Positions 1 to 27,556 of a stretch of DNA of 32,000 bases are shown piece after piece. The number at the start of each line of letters is the position of its first letter. Within the stretch, counting starts at the first letter, position 1. The position numbers and the translations under genes are program-made. The DNA is from Candidatus Nanopusillus sp. (GTDB lineage: Archaea > Nanobdellota > Nanobdellia > Nanobdellales > Nanobdellaceae). Below the pieces are notes generated by a model. That model was given only the letters and a program-made list of their open reading frames with translations. It was not told the DNA's origin and did not search any database. The DNA lies in the NCBI GenBank assembly GCA_028276785.1, contig JAPYVP010000001.1, positions 1-32,000 on the forward strand, in the 5' to 3' direction.

Positions 1-529
1 CATGCCATACTGCATTATGTAATATTGTTCTATTATCTAATATTAAATCACCTTTAGGGTCTGTGTGTCCTTCGTAATTTATTACACCTTTTGGTACAAA
101 TCCTTGATATCCATCAGGAGATCCTACATAATGTACATTTTCGTTATTTGGAGATGGTAATCCATGTATTCCAGATAATACAAATAATCCAAGGGCAGCA
201 ACACCAGTACCTATTAGTAAATATCCAACAGCTTTACCTCCAAGACCTCTATATGTATTTTTCATAGATAATCCTGATGAAATTAAGACTTTTGGAGTAT
301 ATGGTAATGATTGTAATGCAGAATTTTTTATTATTGGCATATATTCTGATATTTTATTTTTGGTTTCTCTAAGTTTTTCATAGGTTTTATTTCCTATTTC
401 TTTTAATTTTTCATCTAAATATTCTACAGCTCTATTAACTCCTTCTTTAATTTTGCTAAGACCACTTCCTATACTTTTTCTCGCTCTATCCCTATATAAA
501 ATACTGTCTAAACTCCAGGGTAGTTGCAT
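1..529 (-). CDS. hypothetical membrane protein (3' end runs off the left edge of the window)
   Basis: Absent from the supplied ORF track because no stop lies in the window. My reverse-strand translation from the ATG at complement(527..529) stays open to position 1: MQLPWSLDSILYRDRARKSIGSGLSKIKEGVNRAVEYLDEKLKEIGNKTYEKLRETKNK...GKAVGYLLIGTGVAALGLFVLSGIHGLPSPNNENVHYVGSPDGYQGF...HNAVWH. It has one central hydrophobic helix and no family I recognise. It is divergent from the 734 cluster. Confidence 0.5.
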   Translation of the reverse strand, partial: MQLPWSLDSILYRDRARKSIGSGLSKIKEGVNRAVEYLDEKLKEIGNKTYEKLRETKNKISEYMPIIKNSALQSLPYTPKVLISSGLSMKNTYRGLGGKAVGYLLIGTGVAALGLFVLSGIHGLPSPNNENVHYVGSPDGYQGFVPKGVINYEGHTDPKGDLILDNRTILHNAVWH

Positions 530-733: not shown

Positions 734-1921
734 ATGAAATCTATAAGTGATAATGTAATAGAGCTCATTGTTATAATTATTATATTAATATTTGTAATAA
801 TAGTTTTCTTCAATGTATTAAAAGGTCTTATTTATGCAGGTAGACCAGAAGCAAAATTTGGGTATGCTTTGGCTGGAAGTACAAGTTTTATGATAAACCC
901 GGTGGCACAGGGAGTATCCAATGCTGCAACAATTGCAAATGATGTACTATTAGGAGTTGTTGCTGTTACAATTGCTGTTGGTATAGCATCTGGAATAAAA
1001 GCAAATTATAATCAGAACATAAAGATCTTAAAAAGTGCTGGATATGCTAAAGAAAATGTGGGTTTGGGAACTTTGTTACTTAAAGATCTTAATACTGGAA
1101 GAGCTCCAATAAAAACAATTGCGTCATATGTTGGGAATGCATATAAAAAAGTCTTTTTAAACCCAATGGGTAAAGGTTTATTGGCAGGAACAATTGGTTT
1201 AGATTTAGCTTTCTTAAATAATTTAGCACATGCAATTCAAGCACCAATTTTATACTATTTAGTTCCACAAGGTGTAATAGCTTTAAATTTAAGTAACATA
1301 GACAACTCTGAAATAAGAGGAATGTTTAAAGATTTAAATCAAACATATGTAGAATATATAGAAAAACAAGGATATTGTAGTAATCCAACAAAACAAGAAT
1401 GCCAAAACTTATATGCAACATATCTAATTGCAAAATATTTATTCTATACATACGGAGAAACATTGGGACAGAGTGTAACTATAACACAAAATCATAATGA
1501 ATATGCATTAATATTGTTTGATTATAATAGTAAATATGATGTTACATTAAATGATGTTTTATGTATGTTGGGAATGATGAAATATTATGATTATATCCCA
1601 TTGGAAGTTATGTATGGAAACAATGTAATAAAAAACAACAATAATAATGTAGCCTGTAATATTTTAAGTAGTGTAAGTCCTAGCGCAATGTCATCGAATT
1701 CTCAAACATCAAATGTATATAATAAACTATTAGTAAATTCATATATAGTAGATAAAAATGGTAATGTTGTTTCACAAAGTTCAACTGAAAATAATCTTTC
1801 ACCAGATCAAGTTATAATTATCCCAGGTAATATGAGATTACCAAATGGTATAATAATACAATATACATATGAAGGGGGAAATAGGGTAATTGTATTAACA
1901 TCAATTTCAGGCGAAAGTTAG
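734..1921 (+). CDS. hypothetical signal-anchored surface protein (cluster gene 1)
   Basis: 395-aa ORF. The N-terminus MKSISDNVIELIVIIIILIFVIIVFFNV is a short polar head followed by a long hydrophobic helix. A second hydrophobic stretch is VLLGVVAVTIAVGIASGI, followed by an Asn/Tyr-rich region. No family recognised. Confidence 0.7.
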   Translation: MKSISDNVIELIVIIIILIFVIIVFFNVLKGLIYAGRPEAKFGYALAGSTSFMINPVAQGVSNAATIANDVLLGVVAVTIAVGIASGIKANYNQNIKILKSAGYAKENVGLGTLLLKDLNTGRAPIKTIASYVGNAYKKVFLNPMGKGLLAGTIGLDLAFLNNLAHAIQAPILYYLVPQGVIALNLSNIDNSEIRGMFKDLNQTYVEYIEKQGYCSNPTKQECQNLYATYLIAKYLFYTYGETLGQSVTITQNHNEYALILFDYNSKYDVTLNDVLCMLGMMKYYDYIPLEVMYGNNVIKNNNNNVACNILSSVSPSAMSSNSQTSNVYNKLLVNSYIVDKNGNVVSQSSTENNLSPDQVIIIPGNMRLPNGIIIQYTYEGGNRVIVLTSISGES

Positions 1922-1951
1922 TTTATAAATTACAAAGTTTTTAGATTTATA

Positions 1952-2098
1952 ATGGAAACGGGAGAGCTTTTAAAGATAATTTTAGCATTAGTATTTATTG
2001 TATTAATATTAATATTTATTTTTATTATACTAGGGCCAAAAATAGGGCTAAATATAAATATATTTGCTAAATATCAATTAATAGGAGGAAATGGATAA
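1952..2098 (+). CDS. 48-aa single-helix micro-protein (cluster gene 2; not in supplied ORF track)
   Basis: My translation is METGELLKIILALVFIVLILIFIFIILGPKIGLNINIFAKYQLIGGNG*. It starts 30 nt after the stop of gene 1. Its last 8 nt (ATGGATAA) contain the ATG of the next ORF. The hydrophobic-helix architecture matches its neighbours. Confidence 0.45.
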   Translation: METGELLKIILALVFIVLILIFIFIILGPKIGLNINIFAKYQLIGGNG

Positions 2099-2276
2099 AA
2101 AAACAGAGGTAAATGCTTTTTTAATAGCAGTAATATTATTTATAGTAGCTTTAGTATTATTAGTAATGTTTATGTACTTTTATTTCAAAGGTGGAGTAAA
2201 TTTATTTAATAGTATACCTCAAACAAATGGCACAAATGTTGTAAATAGTATAAATAGCAATAATTATGGAAGCTAA
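2091..2276 (+). CDS. 61-aa single-helix micro-protein (cluster gene 3)
   Basis: ORF track product MDKKTEVNAFLIAVILFIVALVLLVMFMYFYFKGG.... A GGAGG motif lies a few nt upstream of the ATG. It overlaps both flanking micro-ORFs. Confidence 0.55.
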   Translation: MDKKTEVNAFLIAVILFIVALVLLVMFMYFYFKGGVNLFNSIPQTNGTNVVNSINSNNYGS

Positions 2277-2427
2277 TAATTCAATAAACTTTTTAATATT
2301 TTTAATAATAGCATTAGTAATAATCGTTTTGGCAATATTATTTTACTATAATATAGTAAATAACTCTATGCAAGTGAATGCAACAAACGTTGGGTACGAT
2401 TTACTAAATCGATCAGGATTGAGATAA
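2266..2427 (+). CDS. 53-aa single-helix micro-protein (cluster gene 4; not in supplied ORF track)
   Basis: My translation is MEANNSINFLIFLIIALVIIVLAILFYYNIVNNSMQVNATNVGYDLLNRSGLR*. It overlaps the end of the previous ORF by 11 nt and stops 1 nt before the ATG at 2429. Confidence 0.45.
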   Translation: MEANNSINFLIFLIIALVIIVLAILFYYNIVNNSMQVNATNVGYDLLNRSGLR

Positions 2428-2428
2428 T

Positions 2429-3343
2429 ATGAAGAGTAATTTTCTCAGAATAATTTTTGATATAATAATATTAATCGTATTAGCAGTTTTAATATTTTAT
2501 ATTATTATGGTTTTTATTGGAATAACAATGGGAGATGATGCAAGATATACTGGATACTTAAATTCAATTGCTGATAGTATAAATAAAAAAGATTATGGAA
2601 GAGTATTTATAAGTAATTATGATTACAATTATGTTTTTGTATTGACAAATAATGATGGATGGTACTTACAATTATATCGTTGTCTACCTCCAAATCAAGT
2701 TGTAGGTGCATTATCTGTTAAAATAGCCTATTGGAATGTTTCTACTGTAGATAATGGAAATACTGTTATATTTGCGCCAGCATTAGAATATTGTAAATTA
2801 ATAAAGCAGAGATCTTTAAATGTAGATGAAATAAATATAAAAATACAAGGATTAAATGTTGATGCAGGTTTGCTAGCATACTCTTCCAATGAAAATTCAT
2901 TGGGTAAATTTCAAATTTTTATAAGTATAGTGAATCGTTTCTTCCCAATATCTTCAATGTTTCTTACTATAGTAAATGATACTACAATAACATGTAATAA
3001 TAATGGATGTACATTTACATCTCCAAATGTTGGAGGTGGTAATATATATTGTGCTCCAAACCCAAATATAGATTACAAAAGTCAAAATTTACAATATAAT
3101 CCATCAAAATGTGTGGAATTATCGGGATTTCCAAAAAATCCGCAAGTATCTTATAGTAATTTAGTAGGTGAGATTATAAACTCTGTTACATTTGGTAATG
3201 TTTTTAAAAATATATTTGGGATAGATTTCCCAATATTGTATTTTGCAGGTTCTTTACCACCAACAGCAATATACATAGATACATATAGTGATGGAAGAAA
3301 AGCAGATATTAATATATACATAGGAGAGACTGTTCCAAAATAG
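2429..3343 (+). CDS. hypothetical signal-anchored surface protein (cluster gene 5)
   Basis: 304-aa ORF. The N-terminus is MKSNFLRIIFDIIILIVLAVLIFYIIMVFIGI, followed by a Cys-containing, Asn-rich ectodomain. No family recognised. Confidence 0.7.
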   Translation: MKSNFLRIIFDIIILIVLAVLIFYIIMVFIGITMGDDARYTGYLNSIADSINKKDYGRVFISNYDYNYVFVLTNNDGWYLQLYRCLPPNQVVGALSVKIAYWNVSTVDNGNTVIFAPALEYCKLIKQRSLNVDEINIKIQGLNVDAGLLAYSSNENSLGKFQIFISIVNRFFPISSMFLTIVNDTTITCNNNGCTFTSPNVGGGNIYCAPNPNIDYKSQNLQYNPSKCVELSGFPKNPQVSYSNLVGEIINSVTFGNVFKNIFGIDFPILYFAGSLPPTAIYIDTYSDGRKADINIYIGETVPK

Positions 3344-3344
3344 T

Positions 3345-4454
3345 ATGGATCTAGATGAACTATTAGATGCAATAATAGCATCAATATTTTTAATAATTGT
3401 ATCATTAATAGGAATATATTTTCCATATATTGTTGCAAGAATATTTGGTACACATAATCCCCATTTAGTATTAGAAGTTACTAGTTTTATTACATATTCT
3501 ACATCCGAACCCGGGAATATAAATGCGGCATTTTTATTAACCAATGAGCCAGTTTTTTTCTATGAATTTAGAATAACACCCCCAATACCTTCTTATTCAC
3601 CACTAAATCCATTATACGATAATAATAATTTTCTTATTAATATTGGAATATGTTATGTATATGATCTATGGCAAGAGCTTGCATATAATGTTATAGATTC
3701 ATTTGTAACTGCAGTATCTGCATATGTGCCAGGATTGAAGGCTGGTGGCGCTAGCGCTTTATCGAAAGTTTTAGCAGCTTTAAATAATGTATATAGATCT
3801 ACACCAGAGATTGCTAAACAAACAGTAATGAACTTTGCTGGTACATATACATTTTATACAGCACAATCTGCATATTTACAATATTCATATGGAAATCAAA
3901 ATATTTGGGGTAATATTTTCAATGCATTACAATCATCAGTGGGACCTACTATATGGTATACTGCTATATCTACTACAATGCAAGTTGTAGATATGATATT
4001 AATGCAAACTATGCCATTTCCAGCAGGTTTTTTTGCTGGTGTTGCATTTAATCTAGCACTTACTTCAGCAATCACATTAATTGAATATTTTCAGGCTACG
4101 TCCGATCCAAATATTGGTTGTTATTATAATAAATTTATAAATAAAGATAATGGAAATTCTATACTTCCAAGTGCAAAATATACAGTATATCATCCATATT
4201 TAACGTTATCAATATATTATAATCCGAATTTTACATTTTATAATGAATGTAAAGATCCTTATTTATGTGATCCAAGCTTTAGATATATTTATAATCCAAA
4301 TGATAAAACACAAAATAATATATTTAAATTAATTTTGGGAAATATAAATGATAAAGGACAAGAAGTATTTCCAGAGTTTATTATTTTGTCAAAAGTTGGT
4401 TCGGAATATGGGGGCCCATATTTAAGTGTATCAATATTATCATCTAAATCATGA
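3345..4454 (+). CDS. hypothetical signal-anchored surface protein (cluster gene 6), N-terminus fits a prepilin-like D-A-I-I-A-S motif
   Basis: 369-aa ORF whose ATG lies 1 nt after the previous stop. The N-terminus is MDLDELLDAIIASIFLIIVSLIGIYF. Further hydrophobic segments occur around FPAGFFAGVAFNLALTSAITLI. No family recognised. Confidence 0.7.
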   Translation: MDLDELLDAIIASIFLIIVSLIGIYFPYIVARIFGTHNPHLVLEVTSFITYSTSEPGNINAAFLLTNEPVFFYEFRITPPIPSYSPLNPLYDNNNFLINIGICYVYDLWQELAYNVIDSFVTAVSAYVPGLKAGGASALSKVLAALNNVYRSTPEIAKQTVMNFAGTYTFYTAQSAYLQYSYGNQNIWGNIFNALQSSVGPTIWYTAISTTMQVVDMILMQTMPFPAGFFAGVAFNLALTSAITLIEYFQATSDPNIGCYYNKFINKDNGNSILPSAKYTVYHPYLTLSIYYNPNFTFYNECKDPYLCDPSFRYIYNPNDKTQNNIFKLILGNINDKGQEVFPEFIILSKVGSEYGGPYLSVSILSSKS

Positions 4455-5299
4455 GGGCTTTATCTTTAAAGGATATAATAGAATACATAGCTGCTGCTGT
4501 TGTTATAATATTCGTATTTTTTGTTATAGCACTATTATATGCATTTTTTAATATAGAATCGTATTCTCAATATATGTTTCAGCAATTTACAAATAGTTTA
4601 TTAATAGATAGGTTAAATTATTGTTTATATGAAAGTACAAAAAATCCTTTTCTATTGTTTTATGCACCAAATGTAAATATTATAAATAAATATAATGATA
4701 CATATCAAAAATGCTTTATGAACATATCAGGAACATTTTATTATTTTATTAATCAAACAAATGAATCAAACAAACTTATATATACATATCTAAACTTTTC
4801 TTATAATAGTTATATATATTTCTTCTTCTATAATATTAACAATATAAATAAATCATATTCTTACGACCCATATAACCTTAGCTTTAAGTATAATATAAGT
4901 GTAATTCCATACAATGTTGCATATAATATTTATAATGTAAATTATACATATAATGGAAATTTACCAGCCTTAAATCAATTTTTACTTAACTATTTCCATA
5001 ATTATAGTTTATACATATATAATGAGACAAAAAATGCATACCAAAACTATGAAATCATAAATAATGCTAAAATAGTTGATCTTTCGGGATATGGAAGCTT
5101 TTATTATGATGAAGTGTATATTCATCCATTAGTGTCATATTATATTGTTTTACCTGAATATAATAGTGGAGAACCTGTAATAGTATCTTTATATGGGGTG
5201 GGATATCTTTACATGAATGGTATATATAATATGACATGTAATATGATTGCTGGAGGCCAAATAAATATATCTTCATGTAAAGTTACTAGAATACAATGA
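4451..5299 (+). CDS. hypothetical signal-anchored, heavily sequon-decorated protein (cluster gene 7)
   Basis: 282-aa ORF that overlaps the previous gene through ATGA. The N-terminus is MRALSLKDIIEYIAAAVVIIFVFFVIALL. I count 13 N-X-S/T sequons: NDT, NIS, NQT, NES, NFS, NKS, NLS, NIS, NYT, NYS, NET, NMT and NIS. Confidence 0.7.
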   Translation: MRALSLKDIIEYIAAAVVIIFVFFVIALLYAFFNIESYSQYMFQQFTNSLLIDRLNYCLYESTKNPFLLFYAPNVNIINKYNDTYQKCFMNISGTFYYFINQTNESNKLIYTYLNFSYNSYIYFFFYNINNINKSYSYDPYNLSFKYNISVIPYNVAYNIYNVNYTYNGNLPALNQFLLNYFHNYSLYIYNETKNAYQNYEIINNAKIVDLSGYGSFYYDEVYIHPLVSYYIVLPEYNSGEPVIVSLYGVGYLYMNGIYNMTCNMIAGGQINISSCKVTRIQ

Positions 5300-5784
5300 G
5301 AATACAGATAGGTTTCTTTTTATCATTTGTTATTGCTGTAATAATTATTATAACATTATTCTTTATATTTATCTTTAGCATATTTTCATTTGGAAATCCA
5401 ACACTAAATAATATAGCCAGTTTAAATGCTGTTGGTATTGAATATAAATCAGCAAATGGTTTTTTAAGTTCTTTAATTTATTTTAATAATGTAACAGTAC
5501 CTGTAATAGATATTTATGCTGGATTTCATAATAATAAAGCGTTGAATGATTATATAATAAATGAATTAACATATAATGCATTATATTATCTAAATAATTC
5601 TGCTACAATTATAACATTTTATTTAGATAATAGTACAATAATTGGGGTATGCCCAAATAGAGGATATATAGAGTATGTAGTTTATTTAAATGGTAAACCC
5701 AATAAATTTTATGTTTGTCCACCAACAGTATTATACAACTTTTATGTAAATTATAGTTTTTATTATAATTATACTCAAAATTAA
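5296..5784 (+). CDS. hypothetical signal-anchored protein (cluster gene 8)
   Basis: 162-aa ORF that overlaps the previous gene through ATGA. The N-terminus is MRIQIGFFLSFVIAVIIIITLFFIFIFSIF, followed by an Asn/Tyr-rich domain. Confidence 0.65.
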   Translation: MRIQIGFFLSFVIAVIIIITLFFIFIFSIFSFGNPTLNNIASLNAVGIEYKSANGFLSSLIYFNNVTVPVIDIYAGFHNNKALNDYIINELTYNALYYLNNSATIITFYLDNSTIIGVCPNRGYIEYVVYLNGKPNKFYVCPPTVLYNFYVNYSFYYNYTQN

Positions 5785-5811
5785 TAATATTTAAAACATA
5801 ATTGAATTTAT

Positions 5812-7314
5812 ATGAAAACATCTTTAGCACCAATTGCATTGTTTATGGGTGTAATAATTTTAACTGTCTTTGGTATATATTATTTAAATTCTCAAATCCA
5901 AATTGCGACAGAATCTTTAAAATATTTAAGTGAAGATTATATTGCATATCAAGGATTTTTATATTTACTATTTGTTTATATACCATTTGATATTAGATAT
6001 AATTTATTAAATAACCTTTTAACAAATATTTTTTCAGGATCTACATATAATATAAATTATGTATTTGGAAATAATATTCCCAATTATTATTCACAATGTC
6101 AAGTACCTTTTTTATTTAATTTAAAAAGTGTAGAAAATAATGGAAATAATTATAATATAAACTATTCATTATGCGTTCCAATAATTCCTTTAGATAATGT
6201 AAACAATTACCAAAATATAATAAATTTATTTGGTAATATTGGAAATGTTGTAAATCAAGACTTAAGGGAAGAAATTGGATATTTAAATGCAAATTTAAAT
6301 TTTAAATATGCGAATTTTTCATATCAAACTTTTTATTATGATATTTCTAAAAATAGTTTTATACTATCAAATCCACAGTATACGTTCTTTGTATTAAATA
6401 AATATGAAAGAAATTTGACTTTTCCGCAGCTAAATTATATGATAGAATATCCAATATATCCATATTTATTATACTATAATGAATTAATCAGTTATTTGTA
6501 TAATAGAACATTTCAATTTATATATTATAATTTAACAAACCAATCAAATTATATATATTTATATAAAAATGCATATTCTAAAGAAACAATTGGAGATAAT
6601 TTATACTTAAACTTATCATTTAATAATACATATTACTATGTTTTAGATTTATATACATCTCAACTTTTACCAGTACAATATCCAAATATTACAAATGTGA
6701 CAATTGTAATACCATGTGAATCAGTCGGACAAATTGTTAATAATCAATGTATAATAGATGATAAATATTCTGAATATATGTATGCATGCTTATATTTAAA
6801 TACAAGTCAAACTTTATCTATCTTTAATTATCAAGTATTAGATGAGGTAAATATATTCAATGGATATTGGTATAATATAACTAATGTAAATATTAGTACT
6901 GAAAAAAATGTAAAAGTTAGTAGAAGCTTTGTAGAAAATGTTTTAGAAAGATATACATATTATACTGGTGGATATTATCCAGCTTTAATACCTTTAAATA
7001 TTCAAATAAATTATAGTAATGTCAGTTGTTCTATAAATAATCAAACAATAAAATTTGGACCATATGATAATGATTTTAACTGTTTATCATCACAAAACTT
7101 ATTGAAAAATCTTTTATCAAATATGTGTACAATAAGTGAATTGGGATGTTATAGTGATAATGGAAATTATTATTTTAATGCTAAATGTTATGTTGTAGAA
7201 TCATATATAAATAATCAGTTTATGTACAATTATTATCTATATAAATTTATAAAAATAAATAATGAAACAATAGATAATTATTGTGATGAGTCATATTGTT
7301 ATATAATAGGATAA
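5812..7314 (+). CDS. hypothetical signal-anchored surface protein with Cys-rich C-terminus (cluster gene 9)
   Basis: 500-aa ORF. The N-terminus is MKTSLAPIALFMGVIILTVFGIYYL. It has many N-X-S/T sequons. The C-terminal 200 aa carry numerous Cys residues (CESVGQIVNNQC...NMCTISELGCYSD...NYCDESYCYIIG). Confidence 0.7.
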   Translation: MKTSLAPIALFMGVIILTVFGIYYLNSQIQIATESLKYLSEDYIAYQGFLYLLFVYIPFDIRYNLLNNLLTNIFSGSTYNINYVFGNNIPNYYSQCQVPFLFNLKSVENNGNNYNINYSLCVPIIPLDNVNNYQNIINLFGNIGNVVNQDLREEIGYLNANLNFKYANFSYQTFYYDISKNSFILSNPQYTFFVLNKYERNLTFPQLNYMIEYPIYPYLLYYNELISYLYNRTFQFIYYNLTNQSNYIYLYKNAYSKETIGDNLYLNLSFNNTYYYVLDLYTSQLLPVQYPNITNVTIVIPCESVGQIVNNQCIIDDKYSEYMYACLYLNTSQTLSIFNYQVLDEVNIFNGYWYNITNVNISTEKNVKVSRSFVENVLERYTYYTGGYYPALIPLNIQINYSNVSCSINNQTIKFGPYDNDFNCLSSQNLLKNLLSNMCTISELGCYSDNGNYYFNAKCYVVESYINNQFMYNYYLYKFIKINNETIDNYCDESYCYIIG

Positions 7315-7892: not shown

Positions 7893-8366
7893 ATGGATAA
7901 AGAAAAGATAATATTAAATTTATTATTCTTAGCATTTTCCATACCAGTAATTTACCTAATATATTATTCATATTCAACATATTTTAGTGGGAATAAGATG
8001 GTAAATCCTAAAAATATATATGATCTATATATATCAAATTTTACAGTTAGTGGAAATTATTTTTCTTTTAATGTAAATAATCCGAATAATTATTCTGTTG
8101 AAATTTATTTCTCACTTTTGGGATTAAGGAATTCATACCAGACATCTTCAATAGTAACCTCTGGAAATTTTTTACAGAACATATATATAATACAACCAAA
8201 TAGCTATATTACTATACAATATAATTTTGAATTGGATGAACAAACAAGATTGACAATTACCCAATGGGAAAAACTTGGTGGGGTTTTATATTTAACATTA
8301 TATTATTCATCTGTAGGAAACAATTCTATTAGTGGAATAATAAATTACCAGATAGAAAAAAGCTAA
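7893..8366 (+). CDS. hypothetical signal-anchored protein, possibly LEA_2/NDR1-like beta domain
   Basis: 157 aa. An N-terminal hydrophobic helix (ILNLLFLAFSIPVIYLIYY) is followed by ISNFTVSGNYFSFNVNNPNNYSVEIYF. The NPN-containing strand pattern resembles LEA_2 domains, but the family call is weak. Confidence 0.55.
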   Translation: MDKEKIILNLLFLAFSIPVIYLIYYSYSTYFSGNKMVNPKNIYDLYISNFTVSGNYFSFNVNNPNNYSVEIYFSLLGLRNSYQTSSIVTSGNFLQNIYIIQPNSYITIQYNFELDEQTRLTITQWEKLGGVLYLTLYYSSVGNNSISGIINYQIEKS

Positions 8367-14617: not shown

Positions 14618-14701
14618 GCGGCGGTGCCCGAGAGGTCAAAGGGGGTCGGTTTAGGTCCGATTGGATAAGGTCCGCCAGGGGTTCAAATCCCCTCCGCCGC
14701 A
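14618..14701 (+). tRNA. tRNA-Leu (anticodon UAG), class II with long variable arm, no intron, no encoded CCA
   Basis: Hand fold: acceptor GCGGCGG/CCGCCGC plus discriminator A, anticodon stem GTCGG/CCGAT, loop TT-TAG-GT, long variable arm, and T arm AGGGG-TTCAAAT-CCCCT. It forms a GC-rich island that begins 9 nt after the alaS stop. Confidence 0.9.
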
Positions 14702-16718: not shown

Positions 16719-19004
16719 ATGAAAAAAATAAAGCTATTTGCATTATTAACTTTGATATTTAATCTTTTTAATATATATTCGCAAAATTATTCATCAACAT
16801 TATTTAATATTCCAATAGATCCAATAAATATAAGTCAATTAAATCTGTATAATTTGGAACAAGGTTCTTATAGCCATTTTTATATTTTATATCCAGAATA
16901 CTATTATTATTATCCGGCAAATTCATCAAACCAGTATTTAAACATATATTTTAATTCATCAATTCCTCTAAATTTTTATATAATGGATCAACAAAATTAT
17001 CAAAATTTTAAAAGCAGTGGAAATTTTACTTCAATCTATCAGAACTATACAAATTATATAAACCAAAGTATAAACCTATCTTCAGGAAATTATTACATAA
17101 TAATTTATAATAACAATACACAAAATGCATCTTATTTTTTTATATATAGTTTGACAAATCAATCTGAAAAAAATATTTATTCTCCAATAGGAATTTCTGA
17201 TTATGGTATATATATTAACAATGGAAGTATTTATGGATATAATGTTAAAACCAATAAAGTTATTGGAGAAATTTATTTAGATAATTTTAGTTCATATGTT
17301 AATCCTTTATGTTCTAATAGCTTTTTAGGTGAAGATTCAGGTTCAATACAATTAAATGCGATTCTAGAATTAAGTAATGGCCAACATTATTGGCTACAGA
17401 ATGTTTTATTAATAAATAATACTGGTAGATATTTTATTTTTGTTAATAATATATGGAATTTTACATCTTTAAATTCTAATTTATCAAATAATTTAATTAA
17501 AGGTAATGGAATAATAAGTAAACATGATGATAAATATTTTTATGTATATGCAACTGATCATTTTTCTTTACAATATCCATTAAATGTATATTTAATAATT
17601 AATATTACTCAAAACAATTCTTATCCAGAAATACAATTTGGTTATAGTCTAGATGGACAAAACATAAATTGGTACGATAATGTTACATTATTAATTCCAT
17701 CAAATGGTAGTATAGTTATTTCTCCCAATTTTACAGGTTCTAGAAATATTAAAAATTTAGAATTGGTTATTGGTGGACCTGGAAATGGAGCTTGTATAGA
17801 TATAAAAAATATTAGTGGATTTTTGGGTTTATATTATTCTTATAAAAATAATGGAAGTTATTATCTTACTCCAAGTCCTTCAATATTTAATTATGGTTTT
17901 AATACTGCAGAATATTCTTCAAATATTAATGAGGACATAATATCGCAGGGATTTGTAAATTTATCTGTAGGACCTTTTTATCCAAAGTATTTAGGAAATG
18001 TAAATATTACAAACTATAATATATCTGTTTATTATTCTTACAATAATTCATACATAAATCATCAATATCCATTTGGGATAATTTTTAATGTAAATATTCC
18101 AATATATATTTATCAAAACAACACATTGTATGTATTAAATAATTTAACAATAAATGGGGTAAATTATAGTATAAATTATTCTCAGCAGTATGTAAATATA
18201 AGTCTGCTAGTAGATAATAATTATAATATCTCTACAAACTATATTGAATATTATTTAGTTATTATAAATAATAGCATTGGAATAAATTTTACAATTTCTG
18301 GAAATTATTTAAATGAAACACATTATAATAATACATATTATCTTTATGCAAAAGATCTATTGAATATATACTTAAATCAAATATATAATTTTGGAAATTA
18401 CCGATATTATTGTCCAAATAACATAACGTTAAATATAAATACTTCGAAAGTTGTTGAAATATCTGATTATTGTTATTTGCAGTATCAATTAAATATATTT
18501 TCACCATTTAATTATACAATAAACAATAATACATACTATGGAAATACTAGTTTTTATATAAATGCAAATAATAATGTAACTATATTAATAAACACAACCA
18601 ATTATATAAATAATTATGAAAGATTTTATTGCAATAAGAACAATATAACAATAAATGTATCCTCTCCAATAAATATTAATCTATCTAGCTATTGTATATA
18701 TCAATATTTAGTAAATATTAATACACCATTTCTAGTAAATATTTCCATAAATAATTCTATAAATACTTATGGAAATACTTCTATTTTTTTAAATAAAGGA
18801 ACTGTAATAAATATTTTACCAGCTAAGTATATTGAATCAGGATTCTTTTATGATACAATTTATTATGAAGATGGATATAATTTTATTGTAAATCAACCAT
18901 TAAATATTACTGTACAATTCAATAAGAAAGTTCAATATAATTATTTAAATATCGGGTTGTTGATTGGTGTAATAGTTGGAATAATAATATTTATTCTATA
19001 CTAA
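16719..19004 (+). CDS. membrane-anchored thermopsin-family (peptidase A5) surface glycoprotein
   Basis: 761 aa with a Sec-type signal MKKIKLFALLTLIFNLFNIYSQN. Roughly aa 153-405 is collinear with Sulfolobus thermopsin as I remember it: SPIGISDYGIY, SIQLNAILELSNGQHYWLQNV, FVNNIWNFTS, IKGNGII, ELVIGGPGNGA, LGLYYSY and FNYGFNTAEYS. Repeated Cys-pair modules follow, then a C-terminal TM helix LNIGLLIGVIVGIIIFILY. Sequon density is very high. Confidence 0.85.
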   Translation: MKKIKLFALLTLIFNLFNIYSQNYSSTLFNIPIDPINISQLNLYNLEQGSYSHFYILYPEYYYYYPANSSNQYLNIYFNSSIPLNFYIMDQQNYQNFKSSGNFTSIYQNYTNYINQSINLSSGNYYIIIYNNNTQNASYFFIYSLTNQSEKNIYSPIGISDYGIYINNGSIYGYNVKTNKVIGEIYLDNFSSYVNPLCSNSFLGEDSGSIQLNAILELSNGQHYWLQNVLLINNTGRYFIFVNNIWNFTSLNSNLSNNLIKGNGIISKHDDKYFYVYATDHFSLQYPLNVYLIINITQNNSYPEIQFGYSLDGQNINWYDNVTLLIPSNGSIVISPNFTGSRNIKNLELVIGGPGNGACIDIKNISGFLGLYYSYKNNGSYYLTPSPSIFNYGFNTAEYSSNINEDIISQGFVNLSVGPFYPKYLGNVNITNYNISVYYSYNNSYINHQYPFGIIFNVNIPIYIYQNNTLYVLNNLTINGVNYSINYSQQYVNISLLVDNNYNISTNYIEYYLVIINNSIGINFTISGNYLNETHYNNTYYLYAKDLLNIYLNQIYNFGNYRYYCPNNITLNINTSKVVEISDYCYLQYQLNIFSPFNYTINNNTYYGNTSFYINANNNVTILINTTNYINNYERFYCNKNNITINVSSPININLSSYCIYQYLVNINTPFLVNISINNSINTYGNTSIFLNKGTVINILPAKYIESGFFYDTIYYEDGYNFIVNQPLNITVQFNKKVQYNYLNIGLLIGVIVGIIIFILY

Positions 19005-19106: not shown

Positions 19107-19967
19107 TTATGAATTTAGTAATAATTGGGGTGCTGTTGTATATGTTGTTGTAACTTTATATGATAATGTAATTTCTGTATTGTTGTTTGGGTTATATATA
19201 AGGACTATATAAAAGCCCGGACCTACAGATACTTTTTCATTTATATACGATCCTTGACTATGTAAGTAATATCCGTAAGGATTGCCTTTAATAGCTTGTA
19301 TTAGATTGTTTAAATCAAATACGAAGACATTAACTGAACTTGATGCAGATACCATTATGTATATTATTCCTGAAAATCCAGGTGGTACAGCAATTTCTTT
19401 ATATGTAAATTGATAAGGTTGTAATATAACACTATTATTACCTTGACCTAGAAATGTTAATATATTCCAATAGGTATTATTTAAATTGTTGTATTGATCT
19501 TTTAATGAATTATATTGAGATTGCAATGTTTGATATTGGTTTTGTAAGGTTGTATAATTTGTCTTTAGATTTTCATAATTGGATTCTAGTATATTATATT
19601 GAGACTGTAATGTTTGATACATATTTTGTAGAGTTGTGTAATTTGATTGAAGGATTGAATACATATCTTTTAATGAGCTATAATTATTTTGTAAAGAGTT
19701 ATATTGCATTTGTAATGTTTGATACATATTTTGTAAATCTGTATAATTTATTTTTAGACTTTCATAATTGGATTCTAGCATATTATATTGAGATTGTAAC
19801 ATTTGGTATTGGTTTTGTAAAGCCGTATAATTATTTTTAAGGTTTGCAATTTCAAGTTTCGTAAATTCAAGATTTGTGTTGGACGTAGGATTGGTAAATA
19901 ATAACAATGCCGATACTACCGCAATTAAAATGATCAAACCAATTAAGTATATCTTAGGAGATTCCAT
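19107..19967 (-). CDS. signal-anchored heptad-repeat (L-x3-Y-x2) stalk protein with C-terminal beta module
   Basis: 286 aa. The N-terminal helix is IYLIGLIILIAVVSALLLF. It is followed by 18 uninterrupted heptads with invariant Leu (L43...L162) and Tyr (Y47...Y166), then a globular C-terminal domain (VNVFVFDLNNL...GPGFYIVLIYNPNN). Confidence 0.8.
   Translation of the reverse strand: MESPKIYLIGLIILIAVVSALLLFTNPTSNTNLEFTKLEIANLKNNYTALQNQYQMLQSQYNMLESNYESLKINYTDLQNMYQTLQMQYNSLQNNYSSLKDMYSILQSNYTTLQNMYQTLQSQYNILESNYENLKTNYTTLQNQYQTLQSQYNSLKDQYNNLNNTYWNILTFLGQGNNSVILQPYQFTYKEIAVPPGFSGIIYIMVSASSSVNVFVFDLNNLIQAIKGNPYGYYLHSQGSYINEKVSVGPGFYIVLIYNPNNNTEITLSYKVTTTYTTAPQLLLNS
19464..19841 (-). repeat. 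coding tandem repeat, 18 x 21 bp, with a higher-order 189-bp duplication
   Basis: The 21-bp periodicity encodes LQNQYQM/LQSQYNM/LESNYES/LKINYTD... units. The segment from about 19564 recurs from about 19753, an offset of 189 bp, with about 4 mismatches in the first ~47 bp. Confidence 0.85.
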
Positions 19968-20815: not shown

Positions 20816-21208
20816 TCACTGTTCGGTAGTATTAGATAATGTTATAAACGGTATTGTTGGTGTATATACAATTGTTATATTACCATTTATATATGTATAT
20901 TGTGCATCTGGGAGTACATTGCTAATTACTAAATAATAGCCACCGTTGGATAATTGATATGTATCTAACAAAATTTCTATGTTAAATGTTGTTGATTTAC
21001 CACCATAATAATATGCAGGTCCTATAAATGACCATGCTTCTTGTTGATATAGATTTCTAAAATAATTAAATTGGGCTGGTGTGAATAAGAATAACTTAAC
21101 AGGGCTTGTTGATCTAAGGTTTATGGTCAATTTCACATATTTGTCATTTTGTTGGTAAGTTATATTGTATTGGTAGATATACATAATATTGTTGAGGAAG
21201 ATCTTCAT
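20816..21208 (-). CDS. beta-module ORF, possibly the frameshifted C-terminal part of the upstream CAP-like gene
   Basis: 130-aa ORF that overlaps the 3' end of 21144-22157 by 65 nt in another frame on the same strand. It has no anchor or signal of its own. It carries the VKLFLFTPAQFNYF...YYYGGK...GGYYLVISN module also seen in the 16719 and 19107 proteins. Confidence 0.5.
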   Translation of the reverse strand: MKIFLNNIMYIYQYNITYQQNDKYVKLTINLRSTSPVKLFLFTPAQFNYFRNLYQQEAWSFIGPAYYYGGKSTTFNIEILLDTYQLSNGGYYLVISNVLPDAQYTYINGNITIVYTPTIPFITLSNTTEQ

Positions 21209-22157
21209 TAATTACCGATACTGGTAGTGTTATAGGCCCATTGCACCAGTTACTTAATTCAATTACTAACCAAGTATTGTTTTCAAGTTCTGTCGAACAT
21301 CCATATGACTGAAAATACTTTGGTATATTTATGTCTGGACCTGGTATTTCAGTTACCGGACAAGAACCAATAATTGCATAAGTTGGCCCGTAGCCAATAT
21401 AATATCCATAATATGTATAATTGCTATCTATTAAACCTTCCCAATGAATTGGAGCCTTTGATTGTAGGACCTGTACATACTCACTCGGTGTATAGTCACT
21501 TGGGTACAGACCTTCCTCACCAATAATGAGGAAGTTTTGGTATTGGCTTAGGTATTCACTAAAATCCTGGTCAAAGCCGTAGTGGCTTATTGAGGGGTTC
21601 TGGATCATTGTTTTAAATCTGATATAAGCAAATTCATCTAGCCAAGGACAATATTGTAGTGGCGGAGCATCAATTGACTGTCTATACTGATTTACAATGC
21701 TAAAGAATTGGAAAACCCATGTTGAATTTATTGTAGATTGTTTATATGTGATTGTTGATTGTATGGTTGTTGAAATATTGTTAATGCTCGTTTGTAAAAT
21801 TTGTAGTATTTGTTTTATATATGGGAGATAATAAATGACTATAATTATTATTAACAAAACTATTATGATGCGAGTAATAATTTTATGAATTCTAAATCTT
21901 TTAGGTCTATCTTTACTTCCATCATTATACCAGTATTCATATTTTTTATATTTGTAATTATCCCAGTCATCTTCATAGTTTGATAAATATATATATTCTC
22001 TTACTTTACGATCTTTTCTATTAATCTTAGGTTGTTTATAGAAAATATAAAACCATAATATAATTATTTGTTTGATATTTAGGAATATTTTACTTATTAA
22101 CTTTTCAATATTTTTTATATAATCTAAATAATTAGTATTGATGGTTTTATTTTGCAT
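21144..22157 (-). CDS. membrane-anchored CAP/SCP (YkwD-like) domain protein, tentative
   Basis: 337 aa with a basic, Tyr-rich cytoplasmic head and a TM helix IITRIIIVLLIIIIVIYYL. The ectodomain has a spacing like CAP domains: FSIVNQYRQSIDAPPLQY..LDEFAYIRFKTMIQNPSISHYGF...IGEEG...APIHWEGLIDSNYTYYGYYIG. Confidence 0.65.
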   Translation of the reverse strand: MQNKTINTNYLDYIKNIEKLISKIFLNIKQIIILWFYIFYKQPKINRKDRKVREYIYLSNYEDDWDNYKYKKYEYWYNDGSKDRPKRFRIHKIITRIIIVLLIIIIVIYYLPYIKQILQILQTSINNISTTIQSTITYKQSTINSTWVFQFFSIVNQYRQSIDAPPLQYCPWLDEFAYIRFKTMIQNPSISHYGFDQDFSEYLSQYQNFLIIGEEGLYPSDYTPSEYVQVLQSKAPIHWEGLIDSNYTYYGYYIGYGPTYAIIGSCPVTEIPGPDINIPKYFQSYGCSTELENNTWLVIELSNWCNGPITLPVSVINEDLPQQYYVYLPIQYNLPTK

Positions 22158-23206: not shown

Positions 23207-24853
23207 TTATTTTATATTATTTAATAATTCTATATAAGTTGATATTGACCATAGTTGATGCAAGGCCCCTGCTGGTTTTAATTCATATGCACTAGATCTT
23301 TCTGGTAATGTTCCTATCATTTTTATTAATCTTTCGTTAGATTTCATAATACTATTTATTATATCCCAATATTTTTCCTTATTTAAATTATATAGATCCA
23401 TAGCAGCAATGTTATTTATAAAAATCCATGAATCTCCATTATGCATTGATTTTCCTTCATTTCTAAAATAATTATCTTCATTGCTATATGGGATAAATTC
23501 TTTATCAAATATAGATAAACTACTAATTCCTCCCCATTTTAGATATAAATGTGTTAATGAATAATCAAAAATATTTTCCCATTCATAATTTGAAAAAATC
23601 TTTGGATAAAAGTAATAAGATAAAAATACATTACATCTTATCTTCTTATTTTTTATATCATCATATAATGAAGAATCTGATAAATAATTTTTTCTAATAG
23701 AATTCTTTATTTTTTCTAATTTTTCTTTATACTCATCTTTTTTTGTATAATTATATAAATTATCATATGCATTTGCCATCAAAAATTGTATTTCTATTGG
23801 ATAAATTCTATTTAATGTGTCCATCCATGTCTCATTTGGATATGCTTTAAACAAAAATAATTTTTCATCTAAATAGTTTTCTTCAAATATATTTAATTTT
23901 TCAATAATATTATTTACTAATTTATCAAATATTTCTTTTTCAAATAAATCTTTAAATTGAAATAATCTGAAAATATACAACCCTATTCCATCGGAATTTC
24001 CAATATTTTCATTTTTTATATTCTTTAATCTTCCATCTGGCAAAAAATAATTTGAATATTCAATTAACTTATTCTTTACTATATCTTTATTGATATAGTA
24101 TAATCCTCCCAATGAAATTAGAACATCTCTACTCCATTCCTGAAAATACCATGGAAAACCTGCAGAAATGTTATTATCATAAATAAAAGATAATAACCCA
24201 TTTTCAATTAGATTTTTTCCATTCAAATTATCCTTATCATTTTTATATATTATTTCTAATTCTTTTGCATAAAAAGAAAATGGTAAATATATATATCTTT
24301 CAAATGGTGGAGATTTTCTATATAAGTCATAATTATAATTAACTTTTATCCATTTATTTAATTCTTGATAAACTTCAAATCTTTTTATTATTACTTCATA
24401 GTTTAAATCCCCTTTATTAAATTTTATTTTCACGTAATCATTATTTTTTTCAATATTATATATCCTTCCCCATTCATCTATATCATACAAATATCTTATA
24501 TCAAAATAAACATTTAATGTGGAATATTTATTTGTTTTATATATTAATTTATTATCTATTAATTTATATTCTTCCCATCCATCTTTATATATTATCTTTA
24601 AATCATTATAATCTTTTAATATTATCTTTTCAATTTCATTATAGTTTATATCTCTATTTTCTATTTTTTCTAATATTTTGATAAAATTGTTGTTATAATA
24701 TTGTAATAAACCAAAATATCTACTGTTATATAGTAAAGGTAAAAACAAAAAAGAACCTTTATTATATATAACAGCATAATCAAAGTTTTCTAATTCAATT
24801 TCTTTTTCCATACAAATAATTTCATTAAAAGATTTATAATTATTTTTATTCAT
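23207..24853 (-). CDS. glycogen debranching enzyme, archaeal type (amylo-alpha-1,6-glucosidase, GDE_C domain)
   Basis: 548 aa. The motif AGFPWYFQEWSRDVLISLGGL corresponds to the PWF..WGRD..I.L.G signature of GDE_C. The C-terminal HNGDSW and HQLWSIS fit the (alpha/alpha)6 family. Confidence 0.8.
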   Translation of the reverse strand: MNKNNYKSFNEIICMEKEIELENFDYAVIYNKGSFLFLPLLYNSRYFGLLQYYNNNFIKILEKIENRDINYNEIEKIILKDYNDLKIIYKDGWEEYKLIDNKLIYKTNKYSTLNVYFDIRYLYDIDEWGRIYNIEKNNDYVKIKFNKGDLNYEVIIKRFEVYQELNKWIKVNYNYDLYRKSPPFERYIYLPFSFYAKELEIIYKNDKDNLNGKNLIENGLLSFIYDNNISAGFPWYFQEWSRDVLISLGGLYYINKDIVKNKLIEYSNYFLPDGRLKNIKNENIGNSDGIGLYIFRLFQFKDLFEKEIFDKLVNNIIEKLNIFEENYLDEKLFLFKAYPNETWMDTLNRIYPIEIQFLMANAYDNLYNYTKKDEYKEKLEKIKNSIRKNYLSDSSLYDDIKNKKIRCNVFLSYYFYPKIFSNYEWENIFDYSLTHLYLKWGGISSLSIFDKEFIPYSNEDNYFRNEGKSMHNGDSWIFINNIAAMDLYNLNKEKYWDIINSIMKSNERLIKMIGTLPERSSAYELKPAGALHQLWSISTYIELLNNIK

Positions 24854-24862
24854 TTTTTAATT

Positions 24863-26059
24863 ATGAAAATATTATTTTTATCTTGGGGAGTATTTCCTCA
24901 GAAAGGTGGTGGATTAGAAAAAGTAACATATTATTATTTGAAATATCTCGATTATTTTAATAATAATGTTTATTTATTTATTTTAAATCTGACTGATGAT
25001 GTAAAATCTTTCTGGAATAATAAATTAAAGAACTCAAAAATTTTTGGATTAGATATGAAAGTATATCAATCGTACATAGATTATTTTAAATATGAATCTT
25101 TTACTTTATATAAGAGGAAAATTATAGACTATAAGAAGGCAGTAATTGAATATAAAGATAAAATAATAGATTTATTGAAAAAAATGAAATTAGATTTTGA
25201 TATAATATATGCATATGATTGGTTGACTGCTTTAGCAGGAATAGAAATAAAGAAGATATATAAAAAGCCATTGGTTGTTCATTTTCATTCTCTAGTATAT
25301 GACAGAGTTGGAGGAAATCCGGACGCATTAAAATATTTATATGATTATGATTATGGAATAGAATTGGAAGCATGTAAATACGCGGATAAAATTATAGTAG
25401 TAAGTAAGAGAGAAAAAGATATATTGGTAAAATATTATAATTGTGATGAGAAGAAGATTGATGTGATATATAATGCTCCAGATGACGATTTTAATATAAG
25501 AGAAAAAATAAATAGTAAAATAAAAGAAAAATATAAAATAGTATTATATCTCGGAAGAATGACAATGCATAAAGGCCCAGATTATTTATTAAAAGCAGCA
25601 AAAAAAGTTTTGGAAAAAAGAAAAGATGTATTATTTATATTCGCAGGAACTGGAGAAATGTTAGAATATTTAATAAAAATGGCTGCAGATTTAAATATAT
25701 CAAAAAATGTAATATTTACTGGATGGGTTGATGATGATTTAGCAGAATATTTATATTCAATAGCAGATATATTTGTTTTACCTTCTGTATCAGAACCCTT
25801 TGGTTTAACCCCATTTGAAGCTTTAAAATATAAAGATTTTATTATAATATCAAAACAAACAGGGGTATATGAAGTATTGAAAAATGCGTTAGCAGTTGAT
25901 TTTTGGGATATAAATAAAATGGCAGATTATATATTAGCATTATTATATTACCCAAAATTGGGAGAATATGAGATAAAGTTATGTTTGGATGATATAAAAA
26001 ATTTATCTTGGAAAAATTCTGTAGAAAAATTAATTTCTATTTTCAATAGTTTGATCTAA
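24863..26059 (+). CDS. GT-B glycosyltransferase (GT4/GT5-like), probable glycogen/alpha-glucan synthase
   Basis: 398 aa. Motifs are MKILFLSWGVFPQKGGGLEKV, AYDWLTALAG, VVHFHSL, and the E-x7-E region PSVSEPFGLTPFEALKY, in a glycogen gene context. Confidence 0.75.
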   Translation: MKILFLSWGVFPQKGGGLEKVTYYYLKYLDYFNNNVYLFILNLTDDVKSFWNNKLKNSKIFGLDMKVYQSYIDYFKYESFTLYKRKIIDYKKAVIEYKDKIIDLLKKMKLDFDIIYAYDWLTALAGIEIKKIYKKPLVVHFHSLVYDRVGGNPDALKYLYDYDYGIELEACKYADKIIVVSKREKDILVKYYNCDEKKIDVIYNAPDDDFNIREKINSKIKEKYKIVLYLGRMTMHKGPDYLLKAAKKVLEKRKDVLFIFAGTGEMLEYLIKMAADLNISKNVIFTGWVDDDLAEYLYSIADIFVLPSVSEPFGLTPFEALKYKDFIIISKQTGVYEVLKNALAVDFWDINKMADYILALLYYPKLGEYEIKLCLDDIKNLSWKNSVEKLISIFNSLI

Positions 26060-27205: not shown

Positions 27206-27241
27206 AAATATTTTTTAAAGATATAAAATATAAAATTTAAT

Positions 27242-27556
27242 ATGATTGAAGTTGATAATGAAAAAGAAGCATTTATCACTATTGATGGACAAAAATTATA
27301 TGGTCTTCAAGATCTATTAATTTGGTTATATAATGCAGATCAGGACAAATTTAATTATCATAAAGATCATTTTCTAGAATGGATAAAAAATGCATTAAAA
27401 GAGGAAGTTTTATATGAAAAGATAAAGGAAGCAAAAGATAAGGATGAATATATAAAAATTATAGGAAATTTCTTAAAAGCTCACGAAATATATGTAAAGA
27501 AAAAGCTTTCAAAAGAAGAGGCTGAAGTAAAATTTTCAAAATTATTAGGATTATGA
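27242..27556 (+). CDS. small soluble hypothetical protein, first gene of the ParA/GT3 operon
   Basis: 104 aa: MIEVDNEKEAFITIDGQKLYGLQDLLIWLYNADQDKFNYHKDHFLEWIKNAL... It is Lys/Glu-rich and overlaps the next gene through ATGA. It may resemble small proteins found beside GH57 or glycosyltransferase genes elsewhere, but I cannot verify this. Confidence 0.6.
   Translation: MIEVDNEKEAFITIDGQKLYGLQDLLIWLYNADQDKFNYHKDHFLEWIKNALKEEVLYEKIKEAKDKDEYIKIIGNFLKAHEIYVKKKLSKEEAEVKFSKLLGL

Follow-up and report, generated by a model that had tools for sequence, protein, structure and literature searches.

An attachment organelle, appearing as a cone, portal or tube or as a filament, has been visualised by cryo-electron tomography (cryo-ET) in the nanoarchaeal strain YN1, in Nanobdella aerobiophila and in YN4, and the organelle of the Nanobdellota displays repeating subunits on the outer face of the symbiont membrane, where they replace the S-layer. 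Its components have not been named, and with respect to the proteins by which nanoarchaea hold and feed from their hosts, cryo-ET shows a structure to which no gene has been assigned. As a general kind, clustered archaeal surface glycoproteins with an N-terminal membrane anchor are already known. The present analysis concerns nine adjacent genes (g1 to g9) at positions 734-7314 of contig JAPYVP010000001.1 of Candidatus Nanopusillus sp. (assembly GCA_028276785.1), of which the first 32,000 nucleotides (nt) of the forward strand were analysed (the window); the encoded proteins are themselves new. The N. acidilobi counterparts, Nps_00225-00255, have no arCOG and are listed as uncharacterized (membrane) proteins, for which one or two helices are predicted (Wurch et al. 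2016). Comparative sequence analysis indicates that the block is vertically inherited, that its content and order are frozen while it evolves several times faster than its neighbours, and that it is lineage-restricted, being found only in Nanopusillus-type nanoarchaea. We tentatively favour the explanation that the nine products are subunits of one lineage-specific envelope complex composed of several different subunits, and we give this somewhat less than an even chance.

The nine open reading frames (ORFs) lie on the plus strand, and recomputation returned exactly the sizes and junctions of the initial annotation: g1 (734-1921; 395 amino acids, aa), g2 (1952-2098; 48 aa), g3 (2091-2276; 61 aa), g4 (2266-2427; 53 aa), g5 (2429-3343; 304 aa), g6 (3345-4454; 369 aa), g7 (4451-5299; 282 aa), g8 (5296-5784; 162 aa), and g9 (5812-7314; 500 aa), with successive junctions of +30, -8, -11, +1, +1, -4 (ATGA), -4 (ATGA), and +27 nt. 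The placement of the cluster among housekeeping genes was borne out by the annotation of the window, which includes TYW3, a DnaG-type primase, FBP aldolase/phosphatase, ribosomal protein L12, AlaRS, proteasome alpha, SBDS, and a glycogen-metabolism set; the 3' end of g9 overlaps TYW3, a convergent gene. The non-coding region that precedes g1 is indeed the longest in the window, as had been stated, but it measures only approximately 204 nt, since bases 1-529 are coding on the minus strand. Similarly, the richness of the products in Asn, Tyr and Ile is seen, but is in part a matter of genome composition (the G+C content of the window is approximately 24%, and that of the cluster equals that of its flanks). 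The source had been guessed to be a nano-sized ectosymbiotic archaeon, which agrees with the relatives found, belonging to Nanopusillus, Nanobsidianus, and Nanobdella.

The order g1 to g9, TYW3, g11, and DnaG is syntenic in at least 12 relatives, far metagenomic lineages among them; it is apparently absent from N. equitans. The full arrangement, continuing with FBPase and L12, occurs in Nanobsidianus stetteri Nst1, N. acidilobi 7A, Nanobdella aerobiophila MJ1, Nanoarchaeota archaeon YN1, a Nanopusillus metagenome-assembled genome (MAG), and further MAGs of the Nanopusillaceae. Conservation in relatives had been named as a check on the initial annotation, and the block proved intact across deep divergence. 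Within the Nanopusillaceae, DnaG is 82-94% identical and the cluster proteins are 28-68% identical; over all loci compared, these ranges are 68-94% for DnaG versus 20-68% for the cluster proteins. In the far lineages L016 and L017, DnaG is still 68-71% identical to that of the window, and the cluster proteins are detectable by hidden Markov model (HMM) only. All members are present in every complete locus, including g2 of L016, which was not called by the gene caller yet is present. The small g2 protein is 58-92% identical in the Nanopusillaceae and 47% identical in L013, and gives an HMM match in the far lineages. Because all nine have orthologues, the genes are real. Conservation is uneven along the proteins, the N-terminal regions of g1, g6, and g7 being better conserved than the remainder of each. 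The product of g11 (7893-8366, plus strand; 157 aa) is N-anchored, carries conserved sequons, and is a possible tenth member; its gene is always found between TYW3 and DnaG, and at 55-91% identity in the Nanopusillaceae it is better conserved than the nine cluster proteins.

The most widely traceable cluster member is g1. Its product is 100% identical to the public protein P0091, encoded on a 67-kb contig, and is annotated in relatives as uncharacterized membrane protein Nps_00225 or MJ1_0042. An exhaustive HMMER search with g1 against 1.84 billion proteins retrieved 25 relatives, down to 21% identity, none of which has an annotation or a recognisable domain. Those whose genomic surroundings were inspected proved, apart from L018 (see below), to be neighbours of cluster orthologues. 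A search with g6 found 55 proteins of 56-92% identity which, where named, are hypothetical proteins of Candidatus Nanopusillus or Nanobsidianus; a look-up of the exact g6 sequence showed it not to be on record. The contigs of five of the most distant g1 relatives (L015 to L019) were examined. In L015, L016, and L017 the cluster series is recognisable and confirmed by HMM, and L016 and L017 also contain TYW3, g11, and DnaG. The same order and gene sizes are seen in L019 (not checked by HMM) until the contig stops after g6. In L018, the most divergent g1-bearing contig, two polytopic membrane proteins replace g2 to g9 downstream. The divergent context there comprises L018:2281-3009 and 4780-5942, and a weak transglutaminase-core protein is encoded upstream of g1.

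Two further differences set the far lineages apart. First, a single ORF of 108-118 aa occupies the position of g3 and g4 (L015:1936-2262, L016:11326-11682, L017:5544-5888, and L019:4229-4555); it matches the HMMs of g3 and/or g4 in L015 to L017, and a basic cluster precedes its second helix. Since a true two-helix fusion of g3 and g4 would misplace the g4 sequons across the membrane, internal initiation or processing is possible. Second, two or three extra ORFs, mostly small and N-anchored, lie directly upstream of g1 (L016:9071-9903, L017:2111-3985, L019:2032-2797, and L015:72-536), with starts such as KKA-ISLP, KRS-VSLPIELIV, KRG-FSF, and RKA-VSTDV. In the clade of the window, a divergent membrane-protein gene is found at this site. 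Bases 1-529 (minus strand) hold the 5' part of that ORF, which leaves the window and encodes a charged N-terminal part, a hydrophobic segment, and a low-charge part; its position and a weak similarity point to membrane protein Nps_00220 as the apparent counterpart. Further upstream in Nst1, VKOR and several more uncharacterized membrane proteins are encoded, and together with the ORF at 1-529 these genes indicate that the membrane-protein neighbourhood exceeds the nine genes.

A hydropathy scan detected a strong N-terminal hydrophobic stretch in all nine products, as had been claimed, and in approximately 5 of the 25 other proteins of the window, so that nine consecutive occurrences are far beyond chance. 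The more general description of every product as a signal anchor with a sequon-dense ectodomain was correct for the helices but not for the remainder, because g1 has extra hydrophobic segments, g2 has a tiny tail, and an excess of N-X-S/T sequons is found in only four products. The g2 protein is a single helix between an acidic N-terminus (METGELL) and a short basic tail, with only some 13 residues beyond the helix. In g3 a basic N-terminus is followed by the helix and by a tail with an N-G-T/S sequon that is kept in the loci examined, and in g4 the helix is followed by a short sequon-rich tail in which NVT and NQS are conserved. In addition to its N-terminal helix and a C-terminal domain with four conserved Cys residues, g1 contains two Gly/Ala-rich hydrophobic segments that flank a charged variable loop (residues 89-137), which across the family is 7 to 68 residues long and 18-39% charged. 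Because of these two segments around a charged, length-variable loop g1 is not a simple signal anchor; it probably spans the membrane three times, with its C-terminal domain outside.

The larger products show several properties of extracytoplasmic proteins. Charged residues make up 8-17% of the post-helix parts of g1, g5, g6, g7, g8, and g9, versus approximately 30% in the cytoplasmic neighbours TYW3 and DnaG. The numbers of Cys residues are all even (4 in g1, 6 in g5, 4 in g6, 4 in g7, 2 in g8, and 12 in g9), and the clustered Cys residues noted initially for the fifth and ninth genes were recovered in this count. Across the 11-14 orthologues compared, some of them near 30% identity, each Cys but one is retained in 11 or more; only C496 of g9 departs from this, being retained in 8 of 12, and the other 11 Cys residues of g9 are found in at least 11 of 12. 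Such even numbers and near-invariance are the pattern expected of structural disulfides. In Nst1 a VKOR gene lies a few genes upstream of the cluster. With respect to individual proteins, g5 consists of an N-terminal anchor and a domain with its six near-invariant Cys residues, and g9 of an anchor and a large domain. The long helix of g7 follows the start M-[KR]-[ASG]-LSLKDIIEY, and its Cys residues 58/88 and 263/276 are conserved. The QIGFFLS start of g8 is invariant in the Nanopusillaceae and has Ser for Gly in the far lineages; its two Cys residues delimit a C119-C141 loop with a CPPT motif. The N-terminus of g6 is acidic and its first 57 residues are highly conserved; the protein has four conserved Cys residues and a helical bundle predicted at low confidence (108-253), which includes a conserved Gly-rich hydrophobic helix, followed by a beta-rich C-terminus. 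When co-loss was examined as a guide to Cys pairing in g6, residues C302 and C308 were found to be lost jointly in L016 and L017; the pair C103/C259 is ambiguous, since a Cys of L017 sits three residues away, and was set aside.

Sequon counts were judged against composition-matched shuffles. The 13 sequons initially counted in the 282-aa protein g7 were found again, versus 4.4 expected (P<0.0002), and g9 has 17 versus 8.3 expected (P=0.0006). An excess was also obtained for g4 (P=0.017) and, marginally, for g8 (P=0.06). By contrast, g1 and g5 are below the shuffle expectation and g6 is depleted (1 versus 4.6 expected, P=0.04), so that the claimed sequon density of the larger products holds for g7 and g9, as it does for the small g4, weakly for g8, and not for g1, g5, and g6. 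Many of the sequons are positionally conserved among orthologues. The combination of extracytoplasmic character and sequon excess by which exported N-glycoproteins were judged is seen in g4, g7, and g9 and is borderline in g8, the sites being predicted ones; g1, g5, and g6 lack it, yet they show the low charge and conserved Cys residues of exported domains. Low charge, even and near-invariant Cys residues, and enriched sequons, the latter in part of the products, taken together argue that the bulk of the proteins is extracytoplasmic, in line with the topology proposed initially for the large domains.

Elsewhere, positions 16719-19004 of the window encode a 761-aa protease of the thermopsin family, which has a Sec-type signal peptide and a C-terminal anchor. 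It contains 51 N-X-S/T sequons versus 18.5 expected, the same signature as in g7 and g9, and is a useful internal standard for a secreted glycoprotein of this genome. The glycogen set (23207-29831), in which a ParA/MinD-like ATPase and a small ORF are interspersed, encodes a GDE_C glucosidase, a GT4 glycosyltransferase, a GH57 enzyme, and glycogen synthase, and agrees with the published picture of a heavy investment by Nanopusillus in sugar metabolism that serves surface glycosylation.

The tight packing had been taken to imply one transcript. In the divergent intergenic region upstream of g1 (530-733), a TATA-like box, TTTAATAAAA, lies at approximately 703-712, corresponding to -31 to -22 relative to the g1 ATG. 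A TATA-like box is found at -24 to -34 of the g1 start in most related loci shown, in DNA that is AT-rich, and the geometry matches that of other first genes of the window. The 30-nt spacer between g1 and g2 (1922-1951, plus strand) contains the TATA-like TTTATAAAT at -30 to -22 of the g2 ATG, a candidate internal promoter with the same geometry as the boxes before g1 and other first genes. This spacer is nearly invariant in L003 to L009, and its core, TTATAAATTACAAAG, is kept in L014 and close in L012, surviving where the proteins of a lineage are approximately 33% identical; the g1-g2 gap of L016 is 9 nt only. In the 27-nt spacer between g8 and g9 (5785-5811, plus strand), the TATA-like TATTTAAA at -24 to -17 of the g9 ATG is a possible second internal promoter, which would be lineage-specific: an overlap of the two genes takes the place of the spacer in L011, L012, and L017, and only 2 nt separate them in L016. 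These features suggest that the two spacers act as internal promoters for leaderless or short-leader mRNAs, and internal promoters are likely in this clade. A single transcript is therefore doubtful, given the conserved TATA-like spacer between g1 and g2 and the similar box between g8 and g9, both at promoter distance. From g2 to g8 the genes overlap or abut in every lineage, with stop/start overlaps kept throughout, and these overlaps, together with an AGGAGG just upstream of the g3 ATG, fit a polycistronic core.

Searches for known families left the initial statement that no family could be recognised standing, since Pfam, NCBIfam, PHROGs, PDB, and viral searches were all without a match. 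The nine proteins and g11 gave only sub-threshold noise from hydrophobic helices in Pfam, NCBIfam, and PHROGs, and Pfam searches gave nothing consistent for relatives of g1 (19), g6 (16), and g8 (8), or for the far orthologues and the additional ORFs that precede g1 in the far lineages. Sequence-profile searches of the PDB with g1 and g6 returned nothing meaningful, a scan of 2.9 million viral contigs found no relative, and the cluster region had no match in Rfam. AlphaFold2 models made with the available alignments had low predicted local distance difference test (pLDDT) scores (49.5 for g6 and 56.2 for g8), too weak to exclude any fold, and Foldseek searches with these weak models against PDB and BFVD gave no match at E<=0.001. 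The g6 orthologue of L015 (L015:3024-4025) resembles the conserved region of baculovirus P74 (PIF-0), Baculo_p74 (PF04583), at E=4e-4 and 20.3 bits; membership of that family was rejected, as the score is below the gathering cutoff of 23, concerns one of 16 g6 family members, and is accompanied by no PDB sequence match, and the similarity was treated as a chance resemblance of hydrophobic segments.

As the genes are real, form a co-conserved block, encode extracytoplasmic-looking domains, and match no characterised family, a shared role in a multi-subunit envelope structure is a reasonable interpretation. The proposed complex would lie within the cytoplasmic membrane of the Nanopusillaceae and on its external side, its subunits being inserted as signal anchors with the N-terminus inside and the C-terminus outside, oxidatively folded and in part glycosylated. 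Assembly would proceed via the conserved helices and the ectodomains, with the sequon-poor g1 and g6 and the tiny g2 to g4 forming a membrane-proximal base, and g5 and g7 to g9 the exposed part. The most speculative step is that this would be an envelope module for host-cell contact, possibly a component of the cone/portal attachment organelle.

Several observations weigh against the proposed complex. In an all-versus-all profile-profile comparison (hhalign, ten families), the nine families are unrelated beyond their helices; the possibility that the ectodomains are paralogues was rejected on the same grounds, similarity being confined to the helices. The TATA-like spacers before g2 and g9 permit separate transcription. 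Proteomics of N. acidilobi, which detected approximately a third of all proteins, recovered no product of Nps_00225-00255 (Wurch et al. 2016), and MJ1_0042-50 go unmentioned in the main text of a survey of Nanobdella surface proteins. Besides this cluster, nanoarchaeal genomes encode numerous 'hypothetical external' proteins (Jarett et al. 2018, PMC6142677), which gives this particular cluster a low prior for being the attachment organelle.

The main rival explanation, which we regard as unlikely, is a type IV pilin-like set, in which several products (g1, g5, g7, g8, and those of the small extra ORFs upstream of g1 in the far lineages) would resemble prepilins. A divergent prepilin peptidase would remove a very short class III signal peptide from each by cutting behind a small residue, and nanoarchaeal secretion ATPase/TadC pairs would then build the products into a pilus or pseudopilus. 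This explanation draws on N-termini in which [KR]-[GAS] is followed by [VIL]S or FF and then by a hydrophobic helix. In the g1 family, K/R, then G/A/S, then I/V-S is found in essentially all of the 19+ members, down to 21% identity, and the small residue is also kept in g7 (within its M-[KR]-[ASG] start) and in g8 (QIG-FFLS), although a small residue after K/R may merely cap the helix. When a FlaFind-type motif is considered, in which a charged residue and Gly/Ala at -1 precede an unbroken hydrophobic stretch, g1, g5, g7, and g8 show [KR] followed by G/A/S, with Ser frequent at -1, and charged residues follow the site in g1, g5, and g7; g2, g4, g6, and g9 do not fit, the N-termini of g2 and g6 being acidic and the candidate -1 residue of g6 sometimes Val. 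In g7, an acidic residue conserved five positions (+5) into the putative mature protein also counts in favour, yet the g7 of L016 begins at the putative +1, without a leader, and g1 is probably polytopic. Both g7 and g8 have a C-terminal Cys-Cys loop, and the low-confidence model of g8 shows a long N-terminal helix followed by strands; a Foldseek search of the PDB with that model (pLDDT 56), however, gave no match at E<=0.001, and the 50 best matches listed include no pilin. The window proteins and 60+ orthologues matched none of the Pfam and NCBIfam profiles for pilins, class III signal peptides, archaellins, Flp, or TadE, even at E=0.1-1. Concerning the machinery, a nanoarchaeal clade of secretion ATPases is without identified pilins (Makarova et al. 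2016), and the N. acidilobi annotation has an ATPase/T2SS-F pair and no annotated pilin. Against this stands that no gene for an ATPase, TadC/FlaJ, or peptidase occurs within 10 kb in the window or in the loci with gene tables (L001, L002, and L015 to L019), and that the complete N. acidilobi genome, in which ATPase/TadC pairs exist elsewhere, has no annotated A24 peptidase; the 5-TM protein Nps_01785 would be a candidate for a divergent one.

Alternatively, the genes may encode independent surface or membrane proteins, such as adhesins, S-layer anchors, or binding proteins, grouped by genome compaction and shared regulation. The mutually unrelated ectodomains would fit this, as would the heterogeneity in sequon density and evolutionary rate, the possible internal promoters, and the many other N-anchored hypothetical proteins scattered in these genomes, this window included. 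Mere grouping is difficult to reconcile with a content and order that remain identical when DnaG is only 68% identical, though the upstream flanks differ, or with the retention of overlapping stop/start codons throughout g2 to g8. Moreover, g3 and g4 share one ORF in several far lineages, and the tiny g2 to g4 products can hardly act alone. This explanation, too, is an unlikely one.

Within the favoured reading of a single envelope complex, the more specific proposal that the cluster provides structural parts of the Nanobdellota attachment organelle, the cone or portal that bridges the cytoplasms of symbiont and host, is on present evidence quite improbable. The Gly-rich hydrophobic helices of g1 and g6 outside their anchors might in that case be parts that engage or remodel the host membrane, and the whole would then be reminiscent of the entry-fusion complexes of large DNA viruses, with their many N-anchored, disulfide-bonded subunits. 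A chromosomally fixed remnant of a virus or mobile element with envelope proteins is nearly excluded, because the sub-threshold similarity of the L015 g6 orthologue to Baculo_p74 touches one of 16 family members, and this and the weak matches of the small proteins to poxvirus A28, I2-L1 and similar families (E approximately 0.02-0.3) stand against the lack of PHROGs matches for the nine products, of relatives in the 2.9 million viral contigs and of structural matches in BFVD, a G+C content equal to that of the flanks, borders without integrase, tRNA target, or repeat, and vertical inheritance with fixed housekeeping flanks.

The block is present in three cultivated systems, namely Nanobdella aerobiophila (MJ1_0042 onward), N. 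acidilobi (Nps_00225-00255), and strain YN1, and thus constitutes a short, concrete, and testable list of candidates in cultivated symbiont-host pairs. Should the attachment-organelle proposal be true, an archaeon-to-archaeon cytoplasmic bridge would have its first list of molecular parts; a pilin-like set could provide the orphan secretion ATPases of nanoarchaea with the pilins that they lack. Should both proposals fail, the cluster is an example of a fast-evolving, architecturally frozen surface-protein operon.

Additional features were noted in the window. Three low-charge, Asn/Tyr-rich ORFs lie on the minus strand (19107-19967, 20816-21208, and 21144-22157); one is N-anchored with coiled-coil-type matches, one has a weak CAP-domain match, and a 65-nt overlap between two of them could reflect a frameshift or a wrongly called start. 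An ordinary tRNA-Leu at 14618-14701 (ARAGORN) scored 52 bits in a local Rfam pass and was missed by the speed filters in the whole-window pass.

Among described systems, the archaeal type IV pilin-like proteins (Sulfolobus Ups/Aap, Haloferax PilA, and Methanococcus Epd) and the bacterial pseudopilin/ComG-type operons resemble the cluster in their tightly packed gene runs and in products that start with few polar residues, often K/R and a small residue, followed by a hydrophobic helix of approximately 20-25 residues, with C-terminal disulfide loops in some. The cluster differs from them in that the motif is non-uniform (the N-termini of g2 and g6 are acidic, and in g9 the small residue is followed by Pro) and matches no pilin N-terminal profile, several products are far larger than pilins, g1 is probably polytopic, and genes for an ATPase, platform, or peptidase are not nearby. 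The archaellum accessory proteins FlaF/FlaG (ArlF/ArlG) are of similar size to g8 and g11 (approximately 160 aa) and are likewise N-anchored; no profile match links them, however, FlaG of N. acidilobi is annotated elsewhere (Nps_01855), and the g8 model is partly helical.

The poxvirus entry-fusion complex and the baculovirus PIF complex consist of many small, N-anchored, disulfide-bonded proteins. The likeness is one of architecture only: approximately ten co-conserved, mostly N-anchored small proteins with conserved Cys residues, VKOR encoded nearby in Nst1, and two members with hydrophobic helices outside the anchor. There is no significant homology, and the cluster, unlike these complexes, is a cellular locus.

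Closer to the present lineage, the 'hypothetical external' proteins of Nanoarchaeota (Jarett et al. 2018, PMC6142677) are similarly unannotated and fast-evolving; each has one N-terminal helix, and exposure at the surface is predicted for them. They represent a bulk category, whereas the nine-gene block, its deep synteny, and its Cys and sequon patterns are described in no paper found, and a literature search by locus tag (Nps_, MJ1_) likewise gave none that discusses the cluster genes. The cluster is one candidate among many for a part in the attachment organelle; the two have in common that the organelle occurs in the lineage that carries the cluster, and both are found in YN1 and N. aerobiophila.

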